64,000 bases of DNA, from contig NC_091475.1 of NCBI RefSeq assembly GCF_036971445.1, positions 137,826,001 to 137,890,000 of the forward strand, in the 5' to 3' direction. A model generated the notes under the pieces. The model made no database searches, was not told the DNA's origin, and worked only from the letters and a program-made list of their open reading frames with translations. This stretch comes from Narcine bancroftii (Eukaryota). The stretch's first letter is position 1, and each line of letters begins with the position of its first letter. Positions 8,024-51,398 of the stretch are shown piece by piece. The position numbers and the translations under genes are program-made.

Positions 8024-8241
8024 TATGGTGAATGTCTGCCAAGCTGCCTGTCTCCCCGCTGGCAAGCCTTGGTGTACTAACATTGGCTGTGCATTATCTC
8101 TACTGCTAAGGACACTCCCCTTGGATATAACTGTATATGCACCTATTGTCTTTCATTATTATACCATGAGTTTCTGCTAATAAATGCCATGATTATTGTT
8201 TGACCACATCGTCTTTGTCTACTTCATCAACTGGCACTTCA
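8024..8241 (+). repeat. 5' LTR of Gypsy A
   Basis: Starts TATGGTG (TG mutated to TA; the 3' LTR starts TGTGGTG) and ends ...CACTTCA. TATAA at 8126-8130, AATAAA at 8179-8184. About 14 substitutions and 2 indels versus the 3' LTR by eye (~92-93% identity). Confidence 0.92.
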
Positions 8242-8256
8242 ATTTTATTCACAGAA

Positions 8257-8960
8257 ATGGATGCAGGACTCAAGCCAGAGCGGCTGATAATCGACCAATC
8301 TGCCCCGAGGGCCAGAGAAATTTTTAACCCCTGGATTGCTTGTTTCAATTACTACATGGCTCGAAACAACATGGTCGATGAGGCGATACAGTGGGGCCAC
8401 CTGAAGGCTCTGCTGGCTGAGGTCCATTTCACCGTAACGCAAGGAGCTCCCACTCTGGCTTTAGCCCAGGAACGTCTGACTGCTTACTATGCAGGGCCAC
8501 GGAATGTGGTGCTTGCTTGACATCAGTTGCTGACTAGACGCCAGAAACCCGGGGAAAGTGATGGTGCCTATGCACTGGCTCTCAACTCATTGGCAAATGA
8601 ATGTGATGTCAGGGCAGTCAATGTGCAACAAGATCGCAATGCCTTGAAGCTGGATGCTTTAGTCAACGGGATCGACTCCAGTTACATCCAACAGAGGCTG
8701 CTGGAGACAGACCCCTTAACCTATGACCGGGCAGTCACTCTCGCCAAAACACTGAGAAGTGCCATGCGGGCCAGTGAAATGCTGGAAACCGAAAAGGAAA
8801 CATCCAGGAGTGCTGGAACCCCAAAGAAAAGAAAAAGGCGAACTCCTAAAAAATGCTACTTCTGTGATAAGAGCTGACACCCCAGACAGAAGTGCCTGGC
8901 TCAATTTGCTATCTGCAGCTATTGTGGGAAACTCAGCTACTTTACGAAAGCATGCAAGGC
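8257..8960 (+). pseudogene. gag: gag of Gypsy A (premature stops)
   Basis: MDAGLKPERLIID...; TRRQKPGESDGAYALAL...C; two decayed zinc knuckles CYFCDKS*HPRQKC...CSYCGK...C. In-frame stops at 8518-8520 and 8875-8877. Confidence 0.85.
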
Positions 8961-9149
8961 GAAAAGTACTCCCACTGATAAGAGAAGCACCAAGAAAATG
9001 TGTCATGGAGCTGCAGGAATGGAAGACAACTGTGAAAAGGGGGAATCTTCAGATGAGCAGGCTGATTCGACTTCAAGTGATGGCGAGGTGAGATCCACTG
9101 TGATAGCTCAATTGACTCCAAAGTTTGGGGGATGTTACAGACTGAAACG

Positions 9150-10800
9150 GTCAATTAGGAAGGGGGAGGTGAATGGTGAGACTCTTGATTGTTTAATAGA
9201 CTTGGTGAGTGCTGACAGCTACATCCACGAGAGGGTTGCCAGAGCCTTAAATTTGTGGAGATATCCAGCGAACTGAAAGCTATCAATGGCTTGTAGTGAA
9301 CTTACAAAAACTGTACGGGACAAGTGTAAAGTTACTTTAAATTTGCAGGGACATTGCCTGGGTGATGTGTGGCTCTTTATTATGCCAGACTCTGTGCCCC
9401 TGTGTTACTGGGGTTAGATATTCAATCTCAGATGAACAGTTGGTGTTAAATTTTGGTGGGCCACTACCCACACTTACCATCCCCTGCACTAGTTACTGCA
9501 GTCTGTCCACATAAAGATCAAAGCTCCCTCCCTTTTCAGTGATTTATCCCCCGAGTGTCAGCCGATTGCCACTAAGAGCTATTCTTACAGCAAAGAGGAT
9601 GGTGAGTTTATCAAAGCTGAGACGCAGAGATTGCTTAAAGAGGGAGTAAATGAACCCAGTAAGAGTCCGTGGTGAGCCCAGGTGGTGGTTGTGAAAAATC
9701 ACAGTAATAAACGACTGGTTATTGACTACAGCTAGACAATCAACCATTGCACTAACCTGGATGCCACACATCAATGAAATGATTAATCAGATAGCGCAAT
9801 ACAAAGTGTACTCCACTATTGACCTCAAAGCAGCTTACCCCCAAATTCCCATTAAAAAAAGGAACAACCCAATACAGCCTTTGAGGCTGATGGGGGGTTA
9901 TACCAGTTTAAATGGGTACCTTTTGGAGTCACTAATGGTTGTCAGTGTTTCAGAGGGAAATGGATAAGATTGTTAGGACGAATGAGTTACAGGGTACGTT
10001 TCCCTATCTGGATGATGTCACTATCTGTGGGAAAACACAGGCTGAGCACGACAACAACTTAAAGAAATTTTTAGCAACAGCTAAAGAACTCAACCTTACA
10101 TTTAACAAGGGCAAATGTGTGTTCAACGCGACAGAGCTACCCATTCTGGGCTACATTGTCTGCAAGGGCAGAAAACAAAAATGTATATTTCCTTACTGTA
10201 ATTGACGAATATTCCAGGTTTCCCTTTGCGATTCCATGCCCTGACGTCTTGTCAGCATCTGTCATTAATTCACTTGATAGGATTTTCAGCATTTTTGGTT
10301 TTCCCAGTTACATTCATACCGATAGAGGCTCAGCATTCATGAGCGCTGAACTGCTGTGAGCCCTGCTATGAAAAGGGATTGCCACCAGCCGTACCACGAG
10401 CTACAACCCGCAGGGCAATGGGCAGGTTGAAAGGGCTAATGCTACAGTCTGGAAGACTGTTAATCTTGCTTTAAAAACACATGGTTACCCTGTTACCCTG
10501 ACGCACTTCATTCTATTCCGTCTTTATTGTGTACTGCAACAAATCAAACTCCTCATGAACATATGTTTGCCTTTCCTAGGAAATGAGGAACTGTGATGGA
10601 CTGGCCAGCCTGTTTAACTGAGCCTGGAACCGTGCTGCTGAAGAGCCACATTCGGGCCTGTAAAACAGACTCCTTAGTTCAACTAGCTCAGCTACTGCAT
10701 ACTAACCTCAACTACGCTCATGTTAAATTCCCCGACGGGTGTACTAACACTGTACCCCTAAGAGATCTGGCCTTGCCTGGTTCGCCCCTTCCTCACACTC
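9150..10800 (+). pseudogene. pol: pol of Gypsy A (protease, RT, integrase core; RNase H missing)
   Basis: Protease CLIDLVSADSYI. RT STIDLKAAY, PFGVTNG, FPYLDDVTICG. Integrase YFLTVIDEYSRFPFA, IHTDRGSAFMS, YNPQGNGQVER. Frameshifts and stops throughout. Confidence 0.9.
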
Positions 10801-11163
10801 AGAGTGAACCTGAGAGGTTGACTCACCCCCCCAGCCTATGACCCCAAGTAAGCTTTCAGATGGCCATGCTGAGGCTCCATGGGTCCAGAAGCCAGTCCTT
10901 CCCATACTACTGACCCAGGATCTGTACCAGTTCCCAAGGTTGCAAAGGAGCCAACTGTTTTGGGTTGAAGCACCAGAATTCGTAAACAGCCTGATAGACT
11001 GACATATTCATAAAACATCTCATTATATTTTGATTGCTTGCTAGATACTGGTGTAATTTGGCTGAGTTTCTCAAGGCCAAACATAGTATCCATGTATTGC
11101 TTGCTTCAGTCTTTCCTAGCAGCTGTCCTTTTGATTTTAACCCTTCTTCTGCTGGGGGGAGAC

Positions 11164-11377
11164 TGTGGTGAATGTTTGCCAAGCTGACTCTCTGCCCTCT
11201 GGTGAGCCTTGCTGTACTAACATTGGCTGTGCATTATCTCTACTGTTAAGGACACTCCCCTTGGATATAACTGTATATGCATCTATTGTCTTTCATTATT
11301 GTACCATGAGTTTCTGCTAATAAAAGCCATGATTATTGTTTGACCACATCCTCTTTGTCTCCATCAACTGGCACTCA
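11164..11377 (+). repeat. 3' LTR of Gypsy A
   Basis: TGTGGTG...GGCACTCA, followed by the TSD GTATG. Confidence 0.92.
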
Positions 11378-11382
11378 GTATG

Positions 11383-12510
11383 ATATATACATCACTCTTG
11401 GATTAGAGGTAGTAAATATTGATTTTGTGATTTTTTTTTTCCCAGGAGGTGATGAAGGTGTTTTATAAGAGTAGGGCAGCGGATGTTGTATGCATGGACA
11501 AGGTTTCTCATGATGGACTAATTGAGAAGATGCAGTTGCATACGGTCTGTGGTGAGTGGAATTTGGACAAGAATTTTATCTGTGGTCAGTTGATAGTTTG
11601 GACACTAAGATCATAGGATATTGATGCAAGGATGTTATTTGAGTGGAAGGTCTGACCAGTCTTGGTCCACATTATTGCTGCCCTCTGTTTTGTGTAATAT
11701 GCATGAATACATTGGATGGAAAAAGTAGGTGGTCTGCAGTTGGTACAAAAAATTAGTAGAGTAGTGGAGAGTAAAGAGGGTTATCAAACAATACAACAGG
11801 ATGTTGATCAATTGGATATATGGGCAGAGAAATGGCAGATGGAGTTTCCTTTGAACAGATGTGAGGTGTTGGACTTTGGAATGTCAAATATAAAGGAAAT
11901 GTTTGCTGTTAAAATAATTTGATGTGTAGAGAGATCTAGGGTTCCAGGCTATAGGTTATTGAGAGTGGCCATACAAGTGGATGGGGTGATAACAATGGCA
12001 GGGTATAGCATACAAAATTAAGGGAGTAATTTGATATCAAATATAAAATGTTGGTAGATTTGCATTTGGAATACTGTGTGAAATTCTGGCTGCCCCATTA
12101 TATGATGTGATGGCTATGGAAAGAGTGCAGAAATTATTTACTAGTGTCTTGTCTGGTTTAGAGGGCATGAGTTTTGGGGATAAATTGGACAAATGGGTTG
12201 TTTTCTCCAGTGTAGGAGATTGAAGTTTATAAAATCATGAGGCATTGATTGGATGAACAGACAGAATCTTTTGCCTGGGTAAAAGTGACATACACTAAAG
12301 GATATGTTTGATATAAATGAGAGATGATATCTAGGGCAAATATTTCGCACTTATCGATGCCTCGAATACGTTCTCAGGAGTTATAGTGGATTCAGATACA
12401 ATAGTAGTATTAAAGCGATTTTATGATAGACACATTAATATGGAGGAATGTCTATCAGGTACAAGCAGCAGAATTTTATATTGCATGGACATGGGGCCTG
12501 TTCCCTTCAA
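11383..12510 (+). mobile_element. CR1 LINE ORF2, 3' part (RT to 3' tail), continuing 7000-8018
   Basis: ORF 11716..11922 has IQQDVDQLDIWAEKWQMEF...CEVLDFG. ttggaatactgtgtgaaattctggctgccc is LEYCVQFWSP-like. CR1-like tail ...ggggcctgttcc near 12495. Confidence 0.8.
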
Positions 12511-12779
12511 GACTACTTCTTCCCCATCTGCCTTCATATTTCTGAGCAAACAATTAACCTATAGGCATTATCTCACTCTTTCACTTTTGCACTAGTTTAT
12601 TTTTTTTAAATCTTTCATTGACAGAATTGTCATTTTTAGTAATTTTGGTGCAAAACTTTGCATTTTGTGACTCATGTTCATGATTCTGATTTCTCTGCTG
12701 TTCTGGTTAAATTTATGGTGAAATAATGAAATGCAAAGGCAATATGTATTCATTACACACAGGAAGTTAGATGATGTAG

Positions 12780-13380
12780 AAATAAGAGAGAATAAAGGAA
12801 CTAATGATCGTGAAAGATGAGCTAATTAAAAACACTGAAGAGAAAGATTTAAAGAAATTCAGGTGACCGAAGCTCAACAATTCTCTGAAGAAGATGGTTG
12901 GTCTCGACAAGTTCTAAAGGAGATGGCTGCAGTAAATTGTAATGTTCTCCAAAACTTCTGTCAATTCAGTATAGTTTTAGCATATCAGAAGCTAATATTG
13001 TAACTTTTTTAAGATAGGGAAGAAATAAAATGGTGATTATTAGATCAAATCATGTGATTTCAGTTGGCAATATGTATTCAAATCTATCATTAAGAATATT
13101 TTAAGAAGCACTTCTGGCATGACCAGGCACCTTAACTATGGTTTAAGGAAAGACAACTCATGTTTGATAAAAGATACTTTTAGGATGAATAGAGGATTGG
13201 CTAAAGAAAAACTGAACAAGAACCAAAGGATCTTTTTTTTAGGCTGGTAGACCACACTGCATCAGTCAAGATTTCATCAAGATCCATGTTAGATCATCGA
13301 CTCTTCATATTTTACAACAATAATTGCAATCAAGAGGCAATATTTAATGTTACTAATGGCAACAACAATAAGATGCAAGG
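12780..13380 (+). mobile_element. Highly decayed CR1 ORF2 fragment
   Basis: gttctaaaggagatggctgcag (VLKEMA) and catcaagatccatgttagatc (decayed PQGSVLG). Confidence 0.4.
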
Positions 13381-15414
13381 ATATAAAAATTAAATTGGAT
13401 TTCACAATTTTTATTTCAGTAATGGTGTGTTACACTATATCCTTCCAAGAAATCTGGCAACCAATGATTTTCAAAAATGAAGACTTTTTTGTTTTTCAAA
13501 ACAAGACGCGATTCCTTTGATTTAATAATCTAGCCTGCATGATTATGTTTGTACACAACACAACACTATTTGTTTTAACTTCTGGTTGGATGCTACCTGA
13601 CACAATGACAATAAAGTTGATCCTGATCTAATGATTAAGAAGGTGTTAAGCATTATTGCATGCTGACTTCTGGCAAACAATTAGTCCTGTGATGAGAAAA
13701 TATCAGTAAGGTTGGGTCAGAATGAGGGGAGACAATGTTAAGCATGAATAAAGGCATGTGGTGTTTAGATACTTGGATAAAGAATGGAATGACTGGAGCC
13801 TCTGCCACAGAAACAGACGAACTACATTGAATAGGAAAGCGTGAGTGTACTAATAAAGGTATCTGTGAGCTGAAGACATTAGAGAAAAAACCCTTTGATC
13901 CATGCTCAACACTTACAAAAATTCAATTTTGAACTTATTAGAATGCCTGGGATGTGTGAGGCAAATATTCTAGTGAGGTGCGTAATATCGCACAATTCAT
14001 ATCTTTCAGTAGAAGATGTAATTTGTTTTGTCGAGCTAAAATCAAAAGTTGTAGCTCTAGTTCATAAAACATCTGATTCAATTCTTGGCTGTATATAAAT
14101 AGGTAATTTCTATGTTGATGACATCATGTGAATGGAATGTATAGAAAGATTGCCACTCACATCAATGAGAATCATGACAGGAAGTCATGAATTAATTTCG
14201 TGAGATGCCTGAAGATCACAGAAATGAGTATAAACACTAAAACATGCATAATGAGGTGGTGTTGGTGTATCTGTGCATTGTACTGTGGTGGTAACATTAA
14301 AGTCTTATTACACCTAGTTGGATTTTTTGGTATAATTTAGTTATAAATGTCTGATGCAAATCAATGCAATATTAACATGAGCCAGCAAAAGTAGGAAAGG
14401 AAATGTGGTATAATCAATGAATGTCACCTCCATGAAATGAGCTTTGCATGTGAAACAATTTTACATTTTGTTATGTGGAACAAATAGAGGTAAATAGGAT
14501 GACTTGGACTGATAGCTTCATCAGCTTGTTGGGCCAAAGGGCCTGTTTCTGTTCTGTATAGATTCATGAGTTTGACCTACCAAACAAAGAGCTAAGGATG
14601 GCACCTGGTGGTGTAGACTTTGAAACATTTTAATCACGTGTAATCACAGATCATCAAGGGTGACAAGTTTGACCAGAGGAAACCCTTGCATGGTCCAGCT
14701 GAACTATTGTCAAGAAGATGCAACTTGCATTTTTTTTTGATTGGGTGTTTTGGGATCATTTAGTGTGAATATTAATGAAATGATGTTCAAGAACTGGAGT
14801 CTTAACTTCAGGTGATTCTGAAGTGCTTTATATTGTCTTTGTCTACAATGTCAGTCATGTCATAGGAAGTGAATTTCACTGAAAATTTTTTCATCTGTGC
14901 TGCATGAAAGGCAAATAAGGTCAACAGAACCACTGAGTAGAATGGTCGTGAAAGGTACTTGGAGATGACAAGTTGATAATTATAATTGTCCAGTGAAGGT
15001 GACAAAAGATGTGGGCTCACATCACTCATTAATAGGTCATGATGTATGTGAATTGTTTAGTGCCATTGTTATTTGCAACACTAAGCAGGTGTATTCTAAG
15101 GAGGTTTTGTCAATACCATACCATACAAGGTCGTGGAGAGAAAGTGGTTACCATCAATAGCTAACTTTTGTGATCAATTGCAGAAAAATGCGAATACTAA
15201 TGACGAAATAACTGGATGAAGGCACTGCAACTGGATGATGATTCACACTGTTGCCATGTTTTTGGACTAGTGTAAGCAAATATTCACCAATGGTATTTTT
15301 GAGTATGAGGTTCACATCATTCATGGAATCAAGGCCATTCATCATTTAAATATTTTTTCAACAGCAAAATAGAAGCATTTTTTTAATATTAAACCCATTC
15401 TGTTCAATTGCACC

Positions 15415-15590
15415 CAAATCAATCTACAGACCCACCACCGCCCACCACCCCATACGTTTTGAAGGATGGGAGGAAATTGGAGCCCCTGGGGAAAGCCCAC
15501 ATAGACACAAGGAGAAAATTTGAAAAACTTCTTGCAGACGAGAAGTTGGGTGAACCTAGGTCACTGTAATAACATTGCCTTGCCACTCAA
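15415..15590 (-). mobile_element. V-SINE (HE1-like) fragment
   Basis: Reverse complement ttctccttgtgtctatgtgggctttccccaggggctccaatttcctcccatcc matches the conserved V-domain core (ttctccccgtgtctgcgtgggtttcctccgggtgctccggtttcctccca) as I recall it. Confidence 0.7.
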
Positions 15591-16049
15591 TTTTTATCCA
15601 TTTTGCTTGTCACTTATGCAAATCCAGGCACAAGACTATTTAATACAAAAGTGAGATTGGCTTCAAATAAAATGTAGCTTTATATTCCTCAAATTGTGAT
15701 GTTGTTTTGGCAATTGGCCCAGAGCTTGGATGGTTCTGAGAAACAAAAGAAAAATGTAGTTGCTAGAAATCTAAAATAAGAAAAGTTGTAGCCTCGCCTG
15801 CCATTTCTCAAGCATTTTCTGCCTTTGTATTATGGTCAGTTATCACTGTTATTACAATTCCACAGTAACACTTAGTAATCTTTATCTGTTATTTCTAGAA
15901 TATAAAGACCACAAAATTATTTGAGGTTTCTTTTTTTGTACCTTTGCTTATTTACTTCCAATCGCAATCACAAGCACACATTTGGTACAAGCTGGCCAAT
16001 TTAATAAACACTAGAGCTAGGCCACAGGTTAAAAAAATGTGACACTAAC

Positions 16050-16790
16050 TTCTGGCTGGCTACTGTGTGGATTATCAGCAGTAGTTAGGTGCTCCTGTTC
16101 TTTTAATTTTTTTTTTCTCTAATAATTCACCTTTAACTTTTCAACCAAGATGTTTTGTACTTTTCCCCTTTACTAATTAACATTGATGATTATTTCAAAA
16201 CAACTATAAGGAGTGCTAAAGCTAGAAAAAAATTGGAAAAAAGTAGATAGAGGCAGCTACACTGACTAGGGACTCTATTTCTGACCAGACACACACAGGA
16301 AATAACCAAAACAGAAAAAGAGAGTCAATTGGGAAATTAAATCTACACTCAAAGATTTTGCAGTCACCATCAGCAATTGATGAATGTCTGGGAGCTGTGG
16401 AGGAAGGCTTATGTGGACAAATTAGAGGTTCTTTGTTCTGAAATCTCTGCCAACAATTTCAAATTAGCTTTGAAAGTTGATGTGGAGAGCAGAAGCAGAC
16501 GTCAAAATATAGGAATCTTGGGCTTAACTGAAGGTACCCAAACTGGCCAACCCACCAACTTCTTTTCCAATCTACTCTTGGAAGTTATTGGTAAGGAGTT
16601 CTTTTCCACTATGCCTGAGCTTGACAGAGCACATCATTCCTTGATTCTCAAGCCAGCTTTAGGACACCATCCATGTTCCATTATTCTCCCATTTCACCAA
16701 TCTCAAGTAAAGGATCATGTAATTTGTGAGGCTCGTCAGAGAAGAAATCTTTACGATCTGGGAAAACAGCTTAGACTTGTGCCCTGAAGT
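16050..16790 (+). mobile_element. L1-clade LINE 5' fragment (ORF1 remnant)
   Basis: ORF 16377..16787 has DVESRSRRQNIGILGLTEG...ELDRAHHSL...PCSIILPFH, matching the L1 ORF1p motifs RSRRxNxRIxGxPE and ELDRAHR. Confidence 0.8.
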
Positions 16791-16801
16791 TGTGAATCTG
16801 T

Positions 16802-17746
16802 TGTGATGTAATGGGTTAATTAAATATTGTGATGTAATTGGTTGGTTGGCGGTTAGATTGCATGAATTTCACAGACAGCCTTGCAAAGTCAGAGCAGGTG
16901 CAATTAGAAGGTTCTGGGCTTTAGCAACATGTGCAAGCACACCCAAGAAACTGAAAAATTTGTAGAGAGCTGGGACCATGTGTTTTTTTTTGTAAAGCCT
17001 AGAAATTACAACATTTGCAAATTGAAACCAAAAAAGTAACTGTGTCTGGAGCATCAGGAAGGGAGGGGTAGAGAATGAGATGAAAGGAGTTAGCAGGAGG
17101 CAGACTGAGAAAAGACTGGACAGAAGAGGAGCTTGCTGAAAAATCTTTTTTAAGACTGGGCAGAGTTTGAATATGGTTGCCAGAGGATATTCTTTGTGGA
17201 AATCAGGAGTGGCGGCTAGTCTTCCCAGTATGGCGAAGAGGATAAGAACAAAGAAGAACCTGGAAAGAAGGCACATTTCTTCTGGAAGACACTCCTGTTT
17301 GGGACGTCTAACAAGCAACAACCATATCTCTGTCACCCTCCACAACTTGCCTGCCTGGTAATTCTAAGTAAAGCACTGAAGTTTGCTTGAATGTAATGAC
17401 TGTGATTCTGGGCACAGGATTGAAGATCACTGGAAAATGTAGCCTTGAAAATCTGGACAGTGGAAGATTCCCCAATAAAAAGTACTTTCTTGAAAACACA
17501 TTTCACACACTTGTGCTTCGATTAGGTTGGGGAAGGGCTTGTGTAAATAACTTTGTGTTGATAAGTTAAGGGTTGATCTTATTCTATACTCAGAGAATTA
17601 AACTAATTTTGTTGAAAGAACCATTGCTTTGGAGTATTTCTATTGCTACTAGTATATGGGGTTCATGGAACTCGTTACACTGTGCAGAGAATATAAATAT
17701 CTGTTATATCCAGCTTGCCTGCAGATTACATTTGATGATGGTCACA
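16802..17746. repeat. Candidate long solo LTR (unclassified)
   Basis: Begins where the L1 ORF1 breaks off. Termini TGTGAT...GTCACA form a near-perfect short inverted repeat. AATAAA at ~17474. No TSD found. Confidence 0.35.
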
Positions 17747-17841
17747 TTTTTGAATGAGTAGTTTTGAATAAGTCTCCTTCATTATTAATTCTCACATGAA
17801 CTATTATTTGATGTCTGCAATGAACTGGAATTCACTGGTAG

Positions 17842-19460
17842 TGTGATGTGCTGATGGCTGGCCCTACCCCCATCTGCCTAAACCCAGAATCCTTCTGAAG
17901 ACTACTGTTGAACCTTACCCATAGTTATAAGCTAATAAAAGCATTTGTTCTCCTTCTAGTCGTGAGATCTTTTATTCATGCTATAATTTTATTAGCTTAT
18001 TTCCTAACGATGGAAATGCTACTCAAGCCAGGTATGCTACTGATAGACCCTCTGTCCCCGACGTGGCTAAGGAGTTCACATACTGGTTAGACTGTTTCCA
18101 GGCCTACCTGAACGCGACCAGAGACATCTTCCACGTCCATGAATTCAGGAGATCCGCACTCATTTCGAGGGTAGGAACAAAAGGGTATGCAGTCATCAGG
18201 GACTGCTCTACGTATGACACTGCTACGATGCATTGAAGGTTAGGTACCTGAAATCGCAGAACAAGGACCTAGTGAGGCACCGACTCGCTCTATGTCGCCA
18301 GCGGCCAAGAGAGACCATCAGTTACTACTGCTGGATCTGTGGACACTTGCCAAGAAGTGCAGGTCTAAGCAGCTACGGGCAGTGTTTGTGAGGAAGAATA
18401 GATTTGGGGCAGTCTAGTCACAGGGGTCCACTTGAGATACAGGACTCAAATAGTTGTTGTTTCATGTAAGAAGGACCTGGCTAGCCACGTCAAGCTGGCG
18501 AAATCACGAACAGGCCAAGTTCGAAAACAACAACCTCTAAGCCAGCAAGCCCTTCCAAGGACCAGCTGCTCCTGCTACCCTAGCCCTAACAGCTGTTGCT
18601 TCCTGTGCTAATGAGTGCTTTTACTGTGGCAAGAGCCAGCATCCCCAATCTTGTTGCTCGGCAAAAGATTGTGTCCCAGCTGTGGCAAGAAAGGACATTG
18701 GGTGAGGGTTTGCCGCATGAGGAGAAGTCCATGGCCTGCAACGCTCCCAGATCAGATTCCATCCCCAAGTCATCTGCTTCGAATTCACCAAAACCCATTT
18801 ACTACATGACAGGCCAACAGAGGATGGCAGTGAGGAAACAGCACAAGGCTTGGTGGCCATCTTGCCACAACCTTAACTTAAACTCTGCACCGTCATCGGA
18901 GGAAGATGGAGGGCAGCCATTTTGCCACACAAGGTTCATGCTATCTTACCCATGCAGGGCAAGCCAGGATGGTGGGGGCCACTTGAATGAAGAACATGGA
19001 GTCTCTGGAGACCTAGCCTTGATGGTCCTAGATCAGAACAGACCTCACCAGTTCAGCAACGTGATAATGACTGTAAAGGTACATGGATATTCCACTAATT
19101 GCCTATACGACATGGGCTCAACTGAATGCTTCATGGGCGCATGAACTGTACAAAAATACAACCTGAAGATGTATCCTTCTAATTACTGCATTTTTCTTGT
19201 GTCTCATTCGCATTCTACGCATGTTCATTGCATAGTACATCTGTCGTTTGAAGGGGGAGTTCTGTAAATTTCACTTGTATATTTTTGATGAACTCTGTGC
19301 TCCAGTGTTGTTGGGTCTGGACTTCCTGTGTTCCTGTGTCACCTTAAAAGTGTGACCTTGGAGTATTCTGGTCCACTCCACACCACCCCCCCCCAACCCC
19401 ATAACTGTTGGGAACAGAGGGTCCCTCAAATCAAAACTCACATGCAGCCTCTCCACACTG
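17842..19460 (+). mobile_element. Gypsy LTR retrotransposon B, 3'-truncated (5' LTR, gag, protease)
   Basis: LTR-like segment ~17842-17985 (start uncertain). gag ATG at 18010 (MEMLLKPGMLLIDPLSP). Knuckle CPSCGKKGHWVRVC, protease CLYDMGSTECF, PVLLGLDF at ~19300. Homology ends before RT. Confidence 0.85.
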
Positions 19461-19809
19461 AATTTTATTTGCTTTTTTGCATGCAAGAATTAAGTTGAAT
19501 ATATTAATTTCACTTTATTTATTTACTGATTTTATAATTTATCAATAGTGCAAATAGTGTTATAGGTTTTTTTGCACTTCGTTCTTATATGACCGTGGGA
19601 AAATAAGGTTAACTAATAATAATTAATGCTGGAAACCTTAAAGTTAATCATGTACAAGTTTTGGATACTTGCTCTACCAAGCCTGGAAAGTTAAATGGGG
19701 AATGTATGTTAGACTCTATATTCTGTTTTTTTAAACTATTAATGGTTTAATTGGTTTTTGTATTATTTTAAATGCTCGTTTAGAAATGTTTATGAAATTA
19801 TTAGCCTAA

Positions 19810-20024
19810 TGTGGCGTCCTACCAGCGTGGCGATCAGGCCAGCACTCTGGGCAGCAAACCAAACCAAAGGCCAGCAGCCTACGCAGAGGCACTGGCCCAA
19901 ACAAGCAAACTGGCGGGTGAGGGGCAAGGGCAGAATGTACAAACACTCTTTACAGATAGCAACAGTTTCAAACCCAAGTCACTGGTGCTTTAATAGTTTT
20001 ATACAAACCGCTATTCTCACCACA
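19810..20024. repeat. Candidate solo LTR or small insertion
   Basis: GC-richer block with TGTGG...CCACA inverted termini in AT-rich flanks. No TSD seen. Confidence 0.3.
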
Positions 20025-20789
20025 CATTGGACATTTTTATTAAAGATGTTTTCACAGGAGGTTATAGACCATATTGGATCCAGAGATTTTTTTTATTCTA
20101 CAGACTAATTGGTAATCCCTTGGCCTCCAGCATAACAGAGGATGCAGAAGTGGGGTCAAGATGACCTCTGCCAGAATAAGATGACAGAGCAAAGCGGACT
20201 AGGAAGGCTGGAGTAGAAGTGGCATTTGTATCTTTCCAATAAAGGTCTCCAAGAGTTTGAAGTTCTCCAAAGATCTGTCATCTGTTGTAGATCATGATAA
20301 CCACACACTGGCCTACACACCTTTCTCTTTTAGGCTGCAAAATTGTAATGGGAGATGTACACTGACAGGAAATATAGGGTAAAAAATGTGCCCATAAGAC
20401 CTTTTCAGAAGTTCCTGTATGCTTTGAATAAAGTACATTTTTTTGTTGAATTTGACAAACCATGGAAACAGAACAAGTTAAAATTCCATGTTAATTTACA
20501 ATTACAAAGTAAAAGACTTGCTACTCCAAAACAAAATTATTGATGCACAGCAATAGCATCACATTGGCTGGCTGAACCTAGCAGATGGAGAGTTGCTATC
20601 TGGAGTGCATAGTCTATCCTGGATCAGGATACATTTTATCCATGTGGGAGAGAGGAATAGTTTATGATAAGCTAAAACTCAGTGCATTGGTGAACAGTTC
20701 CATCCAAGGATAGGCACCAGTTTCCTTAGTTGGTTGACAAAGGTGTCCATGGCATCACAGAATCCCTCACTGTGCAAAAATCTGAGCCC

Positions 20790-21325
20790 AGTGGTTCACC
20801 CATTAGCATTTTAGAAGGTCCAACTTGTTGGAGTATTGTGTTCAGTTCTGATCACCTCCTTTCATGAAGGTGATAGAAGCTTGAGAGGATGCAAAGGAGA
20901 TTATTCAGATTTTCTGAATTGGCAGGGATGTCTAGTGAAGAAACAGTTGATGGAGCGGAGGTTTTTCTTTGTAATGAAGGATGAGACATGATGAGAGGTT
21001 TGCAAGATTATGAGGAGAATAGATGGTGTAGACAACCATTACTTTCCTTCTTGGAGCAACAATAGCAAATAACAGAGGACATATTTTGAATGGGTGAAAG
21101 TTAGGGTTGCTATCAGATGAGCTATTATGCACAGACAAGGTGCCTGAAATGCATTGTTGAGGGCAATGGCATCTGGTACAATAGGGATATTTAAAAATAA
21201 TCTTGGCGACATAGATGTAACAAAAATAAAGGGTTATGAGTGTGATGTAGGGAAGGATTAGATTGCTGTGTAGGAGGTTTGCACAACATTATGGTCTGAA
21301 GGGCCTGTACTGCAATGTTTATATT
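20790..21325 (+). mobile_element. CR1 LINE 3' fragment
   Basis: ttggagtattgtgttcagttctgatcacct (LEYCVQF*SP) and a CR1-like tail ggtctgaagggcctgtactg. Confidence 0.75.
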
Positions 21326-22299
21326 ACAGGGTTCGTGTAGTCTTTTCCAAAATTAAATGCTTGATGCTCCTCACAAATAGATTACATATTAGTTATATTG
21401 GTGAGATCAGACATGGCAATATTGGCATCAAATCAAAATGCACACTGCAACTTTCCACTTGTGCAACACCTTGCAATGTGCTGTAAATGTGTAAAGAGAA
21501 AGGAACAAAGGTGTGACAGAAAATAATTGAAAATTTACTGTTTGCAACAGTTGATACTTTAAAGAACCAAAGAGCATTTTAAAATAATGATGCCAATACA
21601 AAATGATTCTAGTCATATAAATACAAGGTTGTCCTCGTGACAGGGACAGAGGTGAAGTTCACAAAGGACAAATCAAAGGAAATTGCGATTTAAAAAAAAT
21701 ACTAGTTTTGAATATTAAACTCAGCAGGACCAGATGGAATCCGAAAGTACTTCACTAAATAAGGGTAGAAATGGAGATGGCTGTTGGCTGACTTTTTTTT
21801 TCATGGCTTATTAAGTGCAAACCTATTAAACAAAATGTGGATAACACCAAATGTGTTCTGAAGTTTTATTCCAAAAAAGGTTGGAGGAAAGATCATGCCA
21901 TTGATGTGTAAATTTGGCAGAAGCAAACAAAACAACAACCTTGATAGAAGAAGTTCAAGTACATTTAATAAGAATTAAGGCCTTAAAATCAACTCACACT
22001 TATTATACATTTTGTCAATTCAGTTTCTTGGAGTGCCTTGAATTGATGAAAAAAATGTTAGATAATGAACTGTTGCTTTATCAACAATATCATGCTTTTA
22101 AACCAGTAACTATTGTCTGGTAATTTTTAACAGATGGAAAATAAATACATAAATCGTAACAGTTGAAGAACCCCACTAATAGGATGTGTAATTGCTCAGG
22201 GGATAGAGACACAAATTAAACAAATTTTCACCACATTTTACCAGAGATCTGAGATGTTGTGTTCTGGCTCCAAAGGCTGTCAAAACAAGTTGCAGAAAT

Positions 22300-22830
22300 T
22301 CAGAGACCATGAATCTACCTGTCCACATTTATGGTGCTGAAGTGGAAAGATTTGGTAAGTTCAAATTCTAGGGAGTAAACATCTCATTGACTTCACTTTA
22401 GACAAGCACATCAACATAACTGTCAAGAAGGCACATGATTTGCTCAAATTTTTTGAACAGAAATGTGACATACCTCAACTTCTAATGGTGCACTCTCGAA
22501 ACTGTACTTGACTGCATGGTATGGGAAATAGCACAAGATCGGAAGCTACAGAAGGTGGTGAATGCAACTCATTACATCATGCAAATGTCTCTGCTTTTTG
22601 GGACTCCATTTATGCTTCCTGCCTTGGAAAGGCAGCCAACATACTGAATAGACCTGTGGCAGCCTGGACAATCTTCTTTCTCCTTCCATTGGGGAGAAGG
22701 CTGAAGGTGGCAAAAAATGCTCATCAGCAAAGACCATTTAATTTTTGCACTTATAAGGTTCCTGAACAAACTCCCGTAACACTATCGTGCTACTCTTGCA
22801 TGGTGCTAATTGATATTTCTTTCCATTGTA
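22300..22830 (+). mobile_element. Rex1-type LINE 3' fragment; Gypsy C sits at its tail
   Basis: aagttcaaattctagggagtaaacatctc (FKFLGVNIS-like), gcatggtatggg (AWYG), aagctacagaaggtggtg (KLQKVV) and LPLGRRL. Confidence 0.7.
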
Positions 22831-22837
22831 ATCACTT

Positions 22838-23059
22838 TGTGGTGATATGATTATGTGCTTTGGCTGGCCCGCCCTCCAGGTGTTTCCCTGTCCTCGACTC
22901 CTCCCCGGTCCTGCCCGGACCATAAAGATAGAGTCCCCTCTCCTTCCCACTCATTTTCCTAGCCTGGACCTGGGCCAGCAGTCTCTAGTACAATAAAGCC
23001 TATCATTCCCCTCAGCCTTTTGTCTGTGTCATTATTGGGGCGACAGATAGCATCCAACA
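22838..23059 (+). repeat. 5' LTR of Gypsy C
   Basis: TG...CA termini, AATAAA at 22992-22997. Aligns to 27278-27479 with indels. Confidence 0.92.
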
Positions 23060-23092
23060 ATTTATTGTACTGGATTTTGGAGGTCTCCAGTA

Positions 23093-23900
23093 ATGGAGAA
23101 ATTGCTGCACCCAGAATGGCTGAAAGTAGACCCCCAAGTCCCAGGTGCATCAGTGATCTTCGAACAGTGGGTGAACTGCTTTAACAACTTCCTCAATGCT
23201 TCTGCTAAGGTGATCCACTCTGTCAAAAAGAAACTCAAGATCCTTCAGGCATGAGTCGGCCAGAGGGCCTTCCTGGCCATCCAAGGAAGCGCGATCTACA
23301 ATGAGGTGATGGCACACCTGTGTGCACTGTAAAAGCTGAAAGTGAACGTGGTTCTACTCCCATTACCTGCTGGTGTCCCGAAAACAACAGCCTGGTGAGT
23401 CCACTGAAGCGTTCATCCAGTCCCGGTCACACTGGGAAAGTAATGTCTTGGAGATCCCACAGCCACAATATCACTGACCCAGTGCATGGAAGAGCTGATC
23501 CGAGACGCCTGCAGGGAAGGGTTGAGGAAGGATTGAGGTCGGATTATATCCGACAATGACTCCTGGAGGAAGACCTGCTCCCACTCAAAAAGGCTAACAA
23601 CTTGATCAGGACTTTGGACTCGGCCCAGCGCCATGTGGTGTCAATCGCGGGAAGAAACGGGCCATCTACGCATGTTCCACCATGAGGGCAGTCGGCCTGG
23701 GACTCAGAGTCGGGTGTTACTGACCCAACCACAGCTGCAATAATGCCATTTGCATAGTCAAGTTGCAACTTCTGCAGGCAGGCCAGGCACACAAGACGCC
23801 TCTGCCCCGTGAGGGGAGCCACATGCTCAGACTGCGGGAATAAGGGCCATTACCAAAAGGTCTGCAGGTCCAGACCGCAGTCCGGGAGCAGCGTGGCTTG
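23093..23900 (+). pseudogene. gag: gag of Gypsy C
   Basis: ATG at 23093 (MEKLLHPEWL). GLRSDYIRQ*LLE. Knuckles CNFCRQARHTRRLCP and CSDCGNKGHYQKVC. Confidence 0.85.
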
Positions 23901-24169
23901 CATGTTAATGGAGCTTCCACCAGTGACTGCATGCGTATTGAGGGGAGTGTCATCTTTCCAGCCACCATTCCTAACCTCAGCACCTCGGCCTACCGCTCCG
24001 ATTACATAATTTCCAACCGCCACGACTCCACTTCCGCCTTCTCCTACATTGAAAGCTGCGTGATTAACATGGATGTTGCCATCTTGGCCGGGCCTCCCCA
24101 CTGATGACGACGAAGAAATGTCTGTCCAAGCATCAGTGATGCTGAACCAAGCCATCTCTCACCTGATCT

Positions 24170-26860
24170 CGAACTCCATGATGCAGATCGAAGTGAATGG
24201 GCATAAAACAAACTGTCTTTTTGATAGCGGCAGCACAGTAAGCTTCGTGCACCCCGACGTGGTCCAGAAACTCTCCCTTCCGGTTAGACCGATGACCTGA
24301 TGGTATAAATGGCAGCGAGTGATCAACAGATCAACAATACCCAGGGGTATTGTGTGGGGGGGAGTTATAATGACTTTGTATTGCTGATTATGCCTCGCCT
24401 CTGCGTGTCGATCCTCCTGGGCCTCGACTTTCAGAATCAGTTCAGGAGTGTGACGATGGCATTCAGAGGCCCCCAACCACTGCTGACCATTCACAACCCC
24501 CCAGCTTTTGGATGCCCATCAACAACCAAATACCCAGTCCCCGGCACTGTCCTATGGTCTCACCACCTTATGGGTGCCCCCGTCACTGCTCGCGGACCCC
24601 CGTCACTGCTCGCGGACCCCCGTCACTGCTCGCGGACCCCCGTCACTGCTCGCGGACCCCCGTCACTGCTCGCGGACCCCCATCACTGCTCGCGGACCCC
24701 CGTCACTGCTCGCGGACCCCCGTCACTGCTCGCAGACCCCGTCACTGCTCGCGGACCCCCGTCACTGCTCGCGGACCCCCATCACTGCTCGCGGACCCCC
24801 GTCACTGCTCGCGGACCCCCACCAAGTGTAGTCGCTATAGAACGGAGGACATGCAATTCATTCGGGCTGAGGTTCAGAGATTCCTGGCGGATGGGATCAT
24901 AGCCCCTAGCACCAGTCCCTGGAGAGCGCAGGTCCTCGTGGTCAGAGGGGCAGACAAGCCTCGGATGGTAATTGATTACAATTAGACCATCAAGCTCTTC
25001 ACTCAATTGTATGTGTACCCGCTATCCCATATAGCCGACTTGGTCAATAAGGTCACAAAGTGCAGAGTTTTTTCAACCATTGACCTCAAGTCAACTTACC
25101 ATCAACTTTCCCTCTGTCCGAGTGATTGAATCTACACTGGATTCAAGGATGACAGAAAACTCTTCCATTTCCTGTGGGTACCCTTTGGTGTTACTAATGG
25201 GATTTCTGTCTTTCAGAGAGTAATGGACCGGATGGTGGAGGAGCACAAGCTGACTGTGTCATTCCCTTACCTTGACAATGTCATCATCTGCAGCTATGAC
25301 CAGGACAACGACGCTAATCTCGCAAAGTTCTTGTGTACTGCCAAGTCCCTCAACTTGATGTACAACAAGGACAAGTACATGTTCAATACAGAGCGTCTGG
25401 CCCTTCTTGGATGTGTTGTGACACATGGTGTCATTGCCCCTGAACCTGACTGCATGCAACCACTCATGGAGCTCCCTGCCCCAAACACCCTGAAGGCACT
25501 AAAGAGATGCCTGAGGTTGTTTTCCTATTACGCACAATGGGTGCCGAACTACGCCGATAAGGCCCACCCCCTAATTTGATCAACTACCTTCGCATTATCG
25601 GCGGAAGCCCAGTCTGCTTTTAACCACATTAGAGGAGACATTACTAAGGCCACGATGCATGCCATTGATGAATCCGTCTCCTTTTAGGTGGAAAGCGATG
25701 CCTCAGATTTTGCACTGGCCGCCACACTAAACCAGACAGGCAGGTAGCATTTTTTCCCGCACCCTGCACGGTCCTGAACTCAGGCACCCCTTCATCGAGA
25801 AGGAGGCACTAACAATTATTGAGGCAGTGCACCACTGGCAAACTATCTGGCCAGTAAGAGGTTTACCGTTTCTGAGGTGGCCGATTGAAGTATCCACCTA
25901 CAACTATGACATCTTGTACTGGCTGGGTAAGCTCAATGATCCCCGGATGTCCTATCCCAAGGGACGTGCGTCAGAGCACATCTCGATCATCTCCAGACTT
26001 GCATGATAATCTGTGCCACCCGAGTTACGAGGTTGTACCATTTTGTTAAGACACGGAATCTCCCATACTCCGTCAAAGATGTCTGGTCCACAAACAGACA
26101 CTGCCAGATCTGCACTGAGTGTAAGCCTCAGTTCTACCGGTCAGAGAAGGCATACCTCATCAAGGCCACCCACCCTTTCGAACGACTCAGTGTCAGCTTT
26201 AAGGGCCCCCTCCCAAACACAAATAGGAACGCCTACTTCCTGACGATGGTGGACGAATTCTCCAGGTCCCCTTTGCAATTCCCTGCATGGACAGGACCTC
26301 AGCTATTGTTATTAAGGCTCTGCGCAGCATCTTTACCCTGTTCAGGTACCCCGACTATATTCATAGTGACTGGGGGACTTCGTTCATAATGAGGATCTGT
26401 GACAGTACTTCCTGGCCAAAGGCATAGCCACCAGCAGGACCACCAGCTATAATCCCAGAGGTAATGGCAAGGTGGAAAGGGAGAACTGCAATGTCTGGAA
26501 AGCAGTGTTCCTGGCCCTTGGGTCCGAAAATATACCAGTGTCCCATTGGCAGGATGTCTTGCCAGAGGCTCTCCACACCATCCGGTTGATACTGTGCACT
26601 GCCACTAACACCACCCTGCATGAACATCTCTTTGCTTTCCCTAGGAGATTGGTGAATGGTTTATCCATCCCTCCCTGGCTGACAACCCTAGGGCCAGTTC
26701 TGCTTCAGAAGCACATCAGGGGCCATAAGACAGACCTATTGATTGAAGCAGTGCACCTCATACATGCAAACCCTCAATACACATTTGTTAGGTACCCGGA
26801 TGGCCATGAGGACACTGTGCCAATACGAGATCTGGCAAGGGCTAGAGACCCTGAGACTGC
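24170..26860 (+). pseudogene. pol: pol of Gypsy C (PR, RT, RNase H, integrase)
   Basis: Protease CLFDSGSTVSF. RT SPWRAQVLVV, PRMVIDY, FPYLDNV (decayed YLDD). RNase H ESDASDFALAATL and EKEAL. Integrase HFVKTRNLPYS...CQICTECK, YFLTMVDEFSR, YNPRGNGKVER. Many stops and frameshifts. Confidence 0.92.
24577..24820. repeat. 20-bp minisatellite (CCCCCGTCACTGCTCGCGGA) x12 inside pol
   Basis: Twelve tandem units counted. G>A variant in units 6 and 11; unit 8 has GCAGA followed by a 1-bp-shorter C run. Confidence 0.97.
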
Positions 26861-27277
26861 CTTGCCGGCCACGCTGCAGATCCGATCGTGCTGCATCAGA
26901 GCATGACCCTGGAGTCCGAGCCGCCTGCCTTGCAGCCGGATGTCCAGACTTCTACCTCCCGTGAAGCAGCAGAGGACCCCCATCACCCCAGGAGTCCCGC
27001 GCCAGCATCCCGACCCTGACGGTTCCTGCAGCGGACTCTCCCCGTCTGCCCCCTCTCTGGAGGAGCGCCAGTCGGACATGCCAGTTCCCCAACGGTCCAG
27101 CAGGAGGATGTCACCTGTGCGGCTAAACTTCTAGCCAGTGGGGGCGTCCACTTCTCCTGCCCCCATTTGTGATAATTATTGATATTGCCACTGTTATTAT
27201 TATTGTTACTGTTATTAACCCCAGTTTGCTGTTGGTTTCCGGTGGGTTCCATTTTTTTTAAAAAAGATGGGGTGAAT

Positions 27278-27479
27278 GTGGTGATATGACTATGTGCACT
27301 GGCTGGCCCGCCCTCCGGGTGTCTTCCTGGTCCTGCCCAGGTGACCCCATGCCATAAAGATCGAGTCCCCTCTCCTTCGCACTCATTTTCCTAGCCTGGA
27401 GTCTCTTGAACAATAAAGCCTATCTTTCCCCTCAGCTTTTTGTCTGTGTCATTATTGGAGCTACAGATAGCGCCCAACA
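27278..27479 (+). repeat. 3' LTR of Gypsy C
   Basis: TGTGGTGATATG...CGCCCAACA, preceded by the PPT. Confidence 0.92.
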
Positions 27480-28184: not shown

Positions 28185-30720
28185 TATATATATTTTTCAC
28201 ACTATAAACCATACTGACCAAAATACATAGACATTTTTCTCTTGAATATATAGAGTGTCATTTTCTCCCCTTTTCCCCTCCCTCCCTCCCTCCCTCCCTC
28301 CCTCACCCCCACTTCCCATTTATTCAAAGTTCAATCTATAAGATACATTAAACCCGTTAAACAATGTCGTCACTTAATAAAAATAAAACAAGAATTTTTT
28401 GTCTTTTATATACTGAGTCAGTTCATTTTGTTGTCTTCTCCTTCTGTCTTTTTAGGTGGTAGAAGTCTGCAGTAGGACTTCTCTATTGTGTTTCATGTAT
28501 GGTTCCCATATTTGTTCAAATATTGTGATGTTATTTCTTAAATTATATGTTATTTTTTTTAATGGAATACATTTATTTATTTCTATGTACCATTGTTGTA
28601 TTCTCAAGTTGTCTTCTAATTTCCAGGTTGACATAATATATTTGTTTGCTACAGTTAGGGCTATCATAATAAATCTTTTTTGTGCTCCATCCAAATAGAG
28701 TCCAAATTCTTTATTTCTTATATTACTTAGAAGGAAGATCTCTGGATTTTTGGTACATTGCATTTGGTGATTTTATTTTATATCTGGTTTAGATCTTCAC
28801 AAAATTTCACTTTCTCACATGCCCAAATTGCATGTATTGTTGTTCCCGTTTCCTTTCTACAGCGAAAACATCTGTCTGATACTGTTGGGTCCCATTTATT
28901 TAAATTTTGGGGTATGATGTATAGCCTGTGTAACCAATTATATTGTATCATGCGTAACCTCGTGTTTATTGTATTTCTCAAAGTTCCAGAGCATAGCTTT
29001 TCCCATGTTTCATTCTTTATCTTTATTTTTATTTTTCTTGTTCCCATTTTTGTTTAGGTTTACAGTTTGTTTCGTCATTCTCCTTTTTTTGCAGTTTGAT
29101 GTACATGTTTGTTATAAATTTTTAAATGATCATTGTGTCTGTAATCACATATTCAAAATTGCTTCCTTCTGGTAACCTCAGACTGGTTCCCAATTTGTCC
29201 TTCATGTAGGTTTTCAGTTGGTGGTATGCAACATTGTATCGTGAGTTAGATTATATTTGTCCTTCATTTGTTCAAAAGATAATTTATTTCCCAAAAAACA
29301 GTTTTCTATTTTTTTGATCCCTTTTCTCTCCCATTCTTTGAAGGAAAGGTTATCTATTGTGAAAGGGATTAGTTGATTTTGTGTCAATATTAATTTTGCT
29401 AGTTGATAATTTATTTTATTCCTTTCTTCATGCATCTTCTTCCAAAGGTTGAGCAGATGGTGCAATACTGGTGAATTCCTATGTTGCACCAATTATTCAT
29501 CCCACTTATAAAGTATATGTTCAGGTATCTTCTCCCCTATTTTATCTAGCTCTAATCTGGTCCAATCTGGTTTTTCCCTTGTTTGATAAAAATCTGATAG
29601 GTATCTTAATTGTGTTGCTCTATAATAATTCTTAAAGTTTGGTAGTTGTAAGCCTCCTTGTTTGTTCCACTTTGTTAATTTATCTAGTGCTAGCCTCGGT
29701 TTCCCCCCTTTCCATAAGAATTTCCTTATTAATTTCTTTAGCTCCTTGAAGAATTTCTCTTAAGTGAATTGGTAATGATTGAAATAGGTATTGAATACTT
29801 GGGAAGATGTTCATTTTAATACAGTTTATCTTTCCTATCAATGTTAGTGGTAAGTCTTTCCAGTGCTCTAAGCCGTCTTGTAATTTTTTTCATTAATGGC
29901 TGATAATTTAGTTTATAGATGGCCGAGATTATTATTTAGTTGTATACCTAGGTATCAAATTGCTTGTGTTTGCCATCTAAATGGTGATTCTTTCTTAAAC
30001 TTTGTGAAATCCGCATTATTTATTGGCATTGCTTCACTTGTATTTGCGTTGATCTTGTACCCCGATACTTCTCCATATTCCTTCAATTTCTTATGTAATT
30101 CTTTTATTGATATTTCTGGTTCTGTTAAGTATATTATAATGTCATCTGCAAATAGACTGATTTTATATTCCTTCTCTTTTATTTGTATCCCTCTTATTTT
30201 ATTTTCTGTTCTTATCAGTTCTGCTAGAGGTTCTATAGCTCTCGCGAACACTGAGGGAGATAGTGAACATCCCTGCCTTGTTGATCTGCCTAATTTAAAT
30301 TGGTTCGATATATATTCATTTACTGTCACCTTTGCCAATGGTCCCTTATATAATGCTTTACTCCAATTAATATATTTCACTGGTAGGTTGAATTTTTGTA
30401 GTACTTTGAATAAATAATTCTATTCTACTCTGTCAAAGGCTTTCTCTGCATCTAAAGCAACCACTACTGTTGGAGTTTTGATTAAGTTAATGAATTTACA
30501 GATACTGTCCATCTTTTTTTAATAAATCCAGTTTGGTCTAGTTTTACTATTTTTGGTACACAGTCGGCCAATCTCTTTGCTAATAGTTTAGCTATTATCT
30601 TATAATCTGTGTTAAGTAGAGATATTGGTCTATACGATGCTGGTGTTAGTGGATCTTTCCACGTCTTTGGTATTACTGTAAATATTGCTGTTTTGCATGA
30701 ATCTGGTATGTTTTGTGTTT
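28185..30720 (-). mobile_element. L1-clade LINE, 5'-truncated (RT, C-terminal CCHC, 3' UTR)
   Basis: [13 protein letters not shown]; RSTRQGCSLSP...IEPLA...ISLFADDII...GYKIN (ORF 29955..30380); CFRCRKETGTTIHAIWAC (28778..29047); KITY...FEQIWEP; G-rich 3' UTR near 28270-28310. Confidence 0.92.
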
Positions 30721-51200: not shown

Positions 51201-51398
51201 GTGTATATATTCAACAGGGGGATATCTTCAACAGGGGGATATCTTTGACGGGGTGGATATCTTCGAGGGGGCGATATGTTCGACGGGGTTATCTTCGATG
51301 GGGTGGATATCTTCGATGGGGGAATATCTTCGACGGAGGTGGATATCTTCGATGGGGGATATTTTCGACGGGGGTATATCTTCGACAGGGGGGAACTT
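36238..51398. repeat. ~15.2 kb tandem satellite, unit ~15-18 bp, consensus G(4-7)ATATCTTCGAC (variants ending CGCC, CACC, CGAT)
   Basis: Continuous array seen directly. Consensus units carry GATATC and TCGA. The + strand is strongly G-rich. Confidence 0.98.
46321..50140. repeat. Near-identical 1500-bp higher-order repeat within the satellite (~2.5 copies)
   Basis: The lines starting at 46501, 48001 and 49501 are identical. The same 171-aa translation occurs at 46898 and 48398 (and at 42673). Confidence 0.95.

Follow-up and report, generated by a model that had tools for sequence, protein, structure and literature searches.

Gypsy retrotransposons of Narcine bancroftii carry a complement of their own LTR at the primer-binding position, which suggests self-primed reverse transcription

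We analysed a stretch of 64,000 nucleotides from Narcine bancroftii (NCBI RefSeq assembly GCF_036971445.1, contig NC_091475.1, positions 137,826,001 to 137,890,000 of the forward strand), hereafter the window, and give all positions in its coordinates. It holds three decayed retrotransposons with broken reading frames, elements A, B, and C, in which the primer-binding site (PBS) position is occupied by a complement of the element's own long terminal repeat (LTR). The elements have the features of Ty3/Gypsy (Metaviridae): A (8024-11377) and C (22838-27479) are flanked by LTR pairs that are 93% and 87% identical and by target duplications (GTATG/GTATG and CACTT/CACAT), and both have a purine tract. 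B is a 5' remnant that shows these features through its full-length relatives, and its LTR bounds were fixed from eight longer relatives, six of which have an LTR pair. The parts of the elements are listed below (PR, protease; RT, reverse transcriptase; RH, RNase H; IN, integrase).

8024-8241, + strand: 5' LTR of A; first base decayed from TG, target duplication GTATG
8126-8159, + strand: predicted transcription start of A; the TATA-like box is at 8126 and is followed by initiator-like TCATTAT with its A at 8155, a weak match that fails the strict initiator pattern
8171-8185, + strand: paired LTR segment of A (putative primer); AATAAA at 8179
8243-8257, + strand: PBS-position complement of A; the gag ATG begins with its final base
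8257-11163, + strand: decayed gag-pol of A; RT joins integrase directly, the RNase H region is missing, and a purine tract precedes the 3' LTR
11164-11377, + strand: 3' LTR of A; segment copy at 11311-11325
17816-17985, + strand: 5' LTR of B; an internal stretch of about 35-40 nt that full-length relatives have is deleted
17927-17940, + strand: paired LTR segment of B (putative primer); AATAAA at 17934
17987-18000, + strand: PBS-position complement of B, 14/14
18010-19460, + strand: decayed gag and protease of B, truncated; no 3' LTR in the window
22838-23059, + strand: 5' LTR of C, 87% identical to the 3' LTR
22921-22957, + strand: predicted transcription start of C; TATA-like CATAAAG at 22921 is followed by initiator-like TCATTTT, whose A (22953) is 32 nt upstream of duplex position 13
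22984-22997, + strand: paired LTR segment of C (putative primer); AATAAA at 22992
23061-23074, + strand: PBS-position complement of C, 13/14 plus one G-U
23093-27276, + strand: decayed gag-PR-RT-RH-IN of C; RT piece at 25130-25576, integrase piece at 26403-26903, purine tract before the 3' LTR
27277-27479, + strand: 3' LTR of C; segment copy at 27404-27417, which differs from the 5' copy at two positions

In all three elements, the LTR end is followed by a single A and then, with no TGG there, by a stretch that pairs with a segment of the LTR. The match is perfect in B (17927-17940 with 17987-18000, 14 of 14), has one G-U pair beside 13 Watson-Crick pairs in C (22984-22997 with 23061-23074), and in A involves 13 of 15 positions when 8243-8257 is compared with the 3' LTR copy (11311-11325) and 12 of 15 with the 5' copy (8171-8185). 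The coordinates and match counts given in an earlier note on this DNA, made from the sequence alone, were all correct on recheck, and the gag ATG, which it placed about 15-35 nt past the LTR, lies 16 nt (8257), 25 nt (18010), and 34 nt (23093) past it in A, B, and C. When each element's own 5' LTR was shuffled, the observed complement was equalled in 0/5000 trials for B, 0/5000 for C, and 56/5000 for A; element A is thus weak when taken alone, and we accept its duplex as real on the strength of its relatives. Among the 30 best copies fetched for each family, a perfect duplex is present in 21 of family A (15 nt), 14 of B, and 13 of C, and a duplex with at most one mismatch in 29, 23, and 22, respectively. 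None of these 90 copies has TGG within the first 6 nt past the LTR, and the longest match of the PBS position to 28 distinct host tRNAs, which represent 14 anticodon types, is 8 nt; the claim that a tRNA PBS is lacking therefore stands, and the search for relatives with a canonical TGG site gave none among these copies of families A, B, and C. The duplex is predicted to form with a pairing probability of 0.73-0.99 in A, B, and C, whichever transcript start is assumed. The LTR-PBS complementarity is a real and strongly conserved feature.

The same conclusion extends to gag starts that were collected by protein similarity and are unbiased as to pairing (183 in total, 150 host and 33 non-host). 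A perfect complement of at least 11 nt is present in 86/150 host and 24/33 non-host starts, compared with 0.13% and 1.8% of shuffles. For the co-variation analysis, which was anchored on motifs and not on pairing, 127 of the 183 starts were kept in 30 LTR clusters and 56 with decayed anchors were dropped; duplex positions 1-3 are set by the anchor. Across the clusters, the Watson-Crick fraction is 0.84-0.96 at positions 4-13 and falls to 0.71 at position 14 and 0.43 at position 15, G-U pairs make up at most 0.07 at positions 1-13, and the register is fixed, with one spacer base after CA that is never Watson-Crick paired. All four pair types occur in the duplex across clusters, which are not fully independent, and segments pair with their own partner at 0.89 versus 0.50 with permuted partners (maximum 0.61 in 2000 permutations). 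It is therefore pairing and not sequence that is conserved, as the earlier note had proposed from three elements. Similarly, C-type loci chosen by RT alone gave a 5' junction in 37 of 60 cases (the other 23 had none, and several rows are mis-anchored), and 15 of the 37 are fully paired through 10 different 14-mers, a diversity that one fixed tRNA cannot track.

Control Gypsy loci of the same genome, which are tRNA-primed and which we take to be Mag-, CsRn1-, and Gmr1-like, have a TGG site in 14 of 20 cases, and the self-complement does not exceed 8 nt in any of the 17 with a repeat pair. These other lineages with TGG primer sites (L380-L399) include one abundant type with LTRs of about 700 nt and the integrase before the RT, presumably the Gmr1-like one.

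A gag-start pattern blind to the PBS matched 899 sites, compared with 3 for a control pattern, and led to four further host families, D-G, each with its own complement. A search with an RT-RH stretch retrieved 480 homologs. Among the 120 matches listed, identities are 49-72%, many are single open reading frames (ORFs) near 1200 aa, and the named sources include sharks and rays, which are nearest and make a cartilaginous fish the probable host, as well as a damselfly, an ant, a psyllid, a nematode, a mussel, a tunicate, and two cnidarians; no relatives were found in the viral contigs searched. Intact relatives (P0008, P0052, P0101, and P0005) have the domain order PR-RT-RH-IN, and the best solved-structure match of the element C RT is Ty3 RT. 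Neither Chromo nor SH3_Tf2-1 was matched in the five relatives scanned, and the precomputed domains of the 120 listed homologs include no chromodomain, whereas a Sushi-type piece of the same genome matches both in the same scan. An unrooted tree of 21 sequences recovers the clade as monophyletic with support of 1.0, apart from ten tRNA-primed controls; one decayed Sushi-type RT-RH, 22% identical to the clade versus 25-33% for the tRNA-primed controls, falls outside it. With this single Sushi-type sequence and no Tf1 reference, the tree is weak evidence on origin. The self-complement trait marks a pan-metazoan, single-ORF, chromodomain-less Gypsy clade, and, as the earlier note had suspected, the elements are probably not Tf1/Sushi chromoviruses, judging by the lack of a chromodomain. 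Three loci of the genome (L412-L414) hold decayed remnants of Sushi-type chromoviruses, which match SH3 and, in part, the chromodomain, and clade members L271-L279 lie in contigs filed as bacterial genomes or metagenome-assembled genomes, where they are probably host contamination. The host range (tunicates and molluscs) makes an identity with the Cigr-1 or MolGy clade, as given in the accessible part of PMC6238403, a possible lead; a motif search of five supplement files of that paper gave no match.

Genomic fossils locate the ends of the transcripts. In thirteen LTR copies (five of family A, one E-type, and seven F-type, two of which share flanks), a terminal poly(A) begins 12-20 nt past the paired segment, and AATAAA is the polyadenylation signal actually used in families A, E, and F. 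No poly(A)-tailed copies of C-type LTRs were found by the tail pattern. A loose tail pattern gave 285 matches versus 46 for its control, mostly unrelated; 11 picked by eye from the first 100 comprise seven tailed LTRs, one A-run expansion in an intact LTR (L446), and three unrelated sequences. Four family-A copies (L419, L420, L435, and L472) begin at the first TG of the LTR or close to it and have a final poly(A) in the place of the unique 5' region (U5); they may be retroposed read-through transcripts or one-ended cDNA. Priming from the poly(A) junction itself was considered and rejected, as the PBS matches the hexamer segment while the tails begin 12-20 nt later.

Two of the tailed copies, L427 and L471 of family F, are 66-nt inserts with target duplications (17 nt and exact in one case, 15 nt and with two mismatches in the other). 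In both, a single extra G precedes a shared first LTR base. This base is the A of an initiator-like YCATTCT, lies 31 nt past a TATA-like box, and places the family F start 40-41 nt upstream of duplex position 13. An extra 5' G in retrocopies is read as a copied cap in the biology of long interspersed nuclear elements (LINEs). These inserts are capped-looking, polyadenylated LTR transcripts that were retroposed, and they map both the start and the poly(A) site without RNA data. In 4 of the 9 copies tested (one each of C and D and two of F), a TATA-like motif and an initiator-like one are separated by 29-33 nt, and the pair is found 31-41 nt upstream of the duplex; in A and B, TATA boxes are present but are not followed by a strict initiator pattern. 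Over the 30 clusters, no fixed distance from TATA to segment was found (35-71 nt or no box), and TATA-like boxes are missing in many. With the family F start some 40 nt upstream of the segment, the primer is probably a stretch within the terminal repeat (R) and not the capped RNA 5' end as in Tf1. Of the RNA ends that the earlier note had asked to be mapped, the fossils give 3' ends in A, E, and F and a 5' start in F only, and this one mapped start lies upstream of the segment, not downstream of it, where it would have spoken against priming from R.

The poly(A) signal is part of the duplex in most clusters, with A[AT]TAAA inside it in 22/30. The remaining 8/30 lack a canonical hexamer in a duplex of unchanged length and register, which ends in GTTAAA or GTTAAAA in five, TTTAAA in one, and GATAAA or GATAAAA in two, one of the last two probably being a decayed copy. 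A hexamer lies downstream of the duplex in three clusters. Since these eight clusters keep the duplex, masking of the signal alone cannot be its general reason, and the unchanged length and register favour priming as the conserved role. The note's proposal of self-priming and/or poly(A) masking is thereby narrowed to priming as the favoured reading of the sequences. A second role in masking the 5'-LTR copy is plausible, because the signal works near the cap in the 66-nt inserts. The 5' poly(A) hairpin of HIV-1, which is tRNA-primed, hides AAUAAA and lies within R-U5 of both LTRs; the clade would be alike in hiding the signal by pairing at the 5' LTR and differs in the partner, which is the PBS position outside the LTR.

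We propose, with a probability of roughly 0.8, that the LTR segment that is complementary to the PBS position primes minus-strand DNA in place of a tRNA. Transcription would start about 20-40 nt upstream of the segment, so that the segment lies inside R. The leader would fold back, and cleavage of the RNA, probably by the element's own RNase H as in Tf1, would fall at the duplex's 3' edge, between TAAA or TAAAA and RCC. From the freed 3'-OH, synthesis could then proceed across the spacer, U5, and the 12-20 nt of R that are left, and the latter would serve as the homology for strand transfer. Plus-strand synthesis would copy about 13 nt of the primer before the primer is removed, and changes in the LTR would therefore be written into the PBS. 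In segments with AAUAAA or AUUAAA, this duplex would also hide the 5'-LTR signal, a second and non-universal role. According to the accessible part of PMC5371799, the polymerase active site and the RNase H active site of Ty3 RT lie about 13 bp apart. The match of the 13-nt duplex core to this spacing is suggestive only, and the spacing could be why pairing stops at 13 nt whatever the start site. The combined account, in which a clade of cartilaginous fish, insects, nematodes, molluscs, cnidarians, and tunicates acquired self-priming independently of chromoviruses, with a primer cut from inside R, set in length by RT geometry, re-copied each cycle, and doubling as a 5' poly(A) switch, and is so far undescribed in print, is tentative, and we place it somewhat under even odds.

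Several points weigh against self-priming or against parts of this scheme. All evidence for priming is comparative, the tRNA set is incomplete, and 64/150 host starts, which are old copies, have less than 11 nt of perfect complement. At one locus (L186) both LTRs are mismatched to the PBS at two positions, which fits a change made in the last cycle and is not proof of one. A second helix by the cut site is expected from Tf1, for which Lin and Levin reportedly described a structured loop beside the duplex, and it lacks overall significance: adjoining helices average 3.7 versus 3.4 bp, not above the shuffle maximum, with at least 4 bp in 20/30 clusters versus 13 expected. The start fossils are 2 of 13 tailed copies, come from family F only, a sister family, and may have had solo or 3' LTRs as their source instead of genomic RNA. 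The duplex itself resembles an initiator in its 5' part, where T,T,A,G,T are the most frequent letters at positions 13-9, and a second start at the segment is possible. An internal primer with a 5' tail would need cutting and trimming, unlike the capped first 11 nt of Tf1. Finally, Ty1 does not inherit its primer sequence, according to work cited in the reference list of PMC5371799, and re-copying of the primer into the PBS is thus not automatic. Beside these points stands a structural observation: in nine non-host loci (L191-L195, L212, L230, L272, and L275) a short RCCT...AGGY hairpin starts directly after the paired segment, and its loop holds a second poly(A) hexamer in L192 and L275; the hairpin is not significant over all clusters.

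If packaged RNA started at the segment and the upstream initiator gave other transcripts, the primer would be the capped 5' end and the system Tf1-like in full. This is a sub-case of self-priming, counted within the probability given above. It would account for the sharp drop in pairing after position 13-14, for the initiator-like letters at positions 13-9 (with G at position 10 in 94%), and for the many clusters without TATA-like boxes, and alternative starts are used by Tf2 (PMC5341516, in the part accessible). We nevertheless regard it as rather unlikely, given that both retrocopies, which are independent, carry an extra G and begin some 40 nt upstream, that TATA/initiator pairs lie 31-41 nt upstream of the duplex in 4/9 copies (C, D, and F), and that position 13 is usually T, which is uncommon as a first base. 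It is improbable that the segment is supplied from the 3' LTR of the same or another RNA molecule, or by short LTR transcripts in trans: sequence cannot separate the two LTR copies, and short capped-looking, polyadenylated LTR RNAs did exist (L427 and L471), but the 5' copy is just 23-67 nt away and is predicted to pair, and cutting the 3' copy would remove that molecule's R overlap.

The duplex might instead serve only to hide the 5' poly(A) signal, with something else as primer. The hexamer in 22/30 duplexes agrees with this, as does the use of the signal 12-20 nt downstream even in the 66-nt capped-looking transcripts, so that the 5' copy needs silencing. Yet the eight hexamer-less clusters hold the same length and register, and the duplex fills the sole place for a primer, with no other primer site found. 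Moreover, templated copying accounts more readily than selected double mutations for the near-pure Watson-Crick pairing of a segment that varies freely (10 haplotypes within one group), and we consider masking as the only function to have a small chance of being right. Priming by a tRNA half or another host small RNA has precedent in Copia lineages (half-tRNA priming, in the accessible text of PMC6317226 and PMC10886601), and the tRNA set compared was incomplete; with a best tRNA match of 8 nt and a site that varies between families along with the LTR, it is very improbable.

Self-primed reverse transcription has been shown experimentally for fission-yeast Tf1 and is mostly attributed to Tf1 relatives. 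The Tf1 primer is the first 11 nt of its own RNA, to which the PBS is complementary (PMC7175516), and Tf1/Tf2 of Schizosaccharomyces pombe and Tj1 of S. japonicus resemble our elements as Ty3/Gypsy elements whose PBS is complementary to their own LTR RNA and which have no tRNA site (PMC7175516, PMC4600332, and PMC5341516; all as far as their accessible text goes). In contrast to the 11 nt at the RNA start of Tf1, the clade duplex spans 13-14 nt and usually has a poly(A) hexamer at its end, and its position in family F is some 40 nt into the transcript (two fossils, sister family). The relatives scanned also differ from Tf1/Tf2 in having no chromodomain or Tf2-type SH3 match. In the part of PMC6317226 that was accessible, self-priming by LTR-PBS complementarity is likewise predicted for the Tf1/Sushi vertebrate chromoviruses and the Tcn1 clade, and, outside chromoviruses, for the TAR lineage of plant Ty1/Copia (Houba and Osr-1). 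The one Sushi-type RT-RH of this genome, decayed and 22% identical, does not group with our clade. The TAR lineage differs from our clade in superfamily and hosts and shows that self-priming can have more than one origin. The accessible sources credit self-priming to Tf1/Tf2/Tj1, Sushi, Tcn1, and the Copia TAR lineage, with Dictyostelium Skipper as a further suggested case. A full-text literature search returned no such description for this clade; Repbase, GyDB, and most subscription journals lay outside that search, and a prior note is possible. If the proposal is correct, tRNA independence would be a repeated invention, here by way of a common animal clade with an internal primer, and such elements would escape control through host tRNA supply or tRNA fragments. 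One 13-bp duplex would join priming, strand-transfer homology, and 5' poly(A) suppression, and its presence would explain why PBS-based annotation misses these elements.

The window also contains features of other kinds. A 20-nt tandem repeat of 12 copies (24577-24820) lies within element C between the protease and the RT. A fragment on the minus strand (29958-30419) belongs to another reverse transcriptase, probably of a LINE, and 36260-51394 is a 15-kb G-rich satellite with a 17-nt unit in about 889 copies (72% matches) and with longer higher-order repeats.

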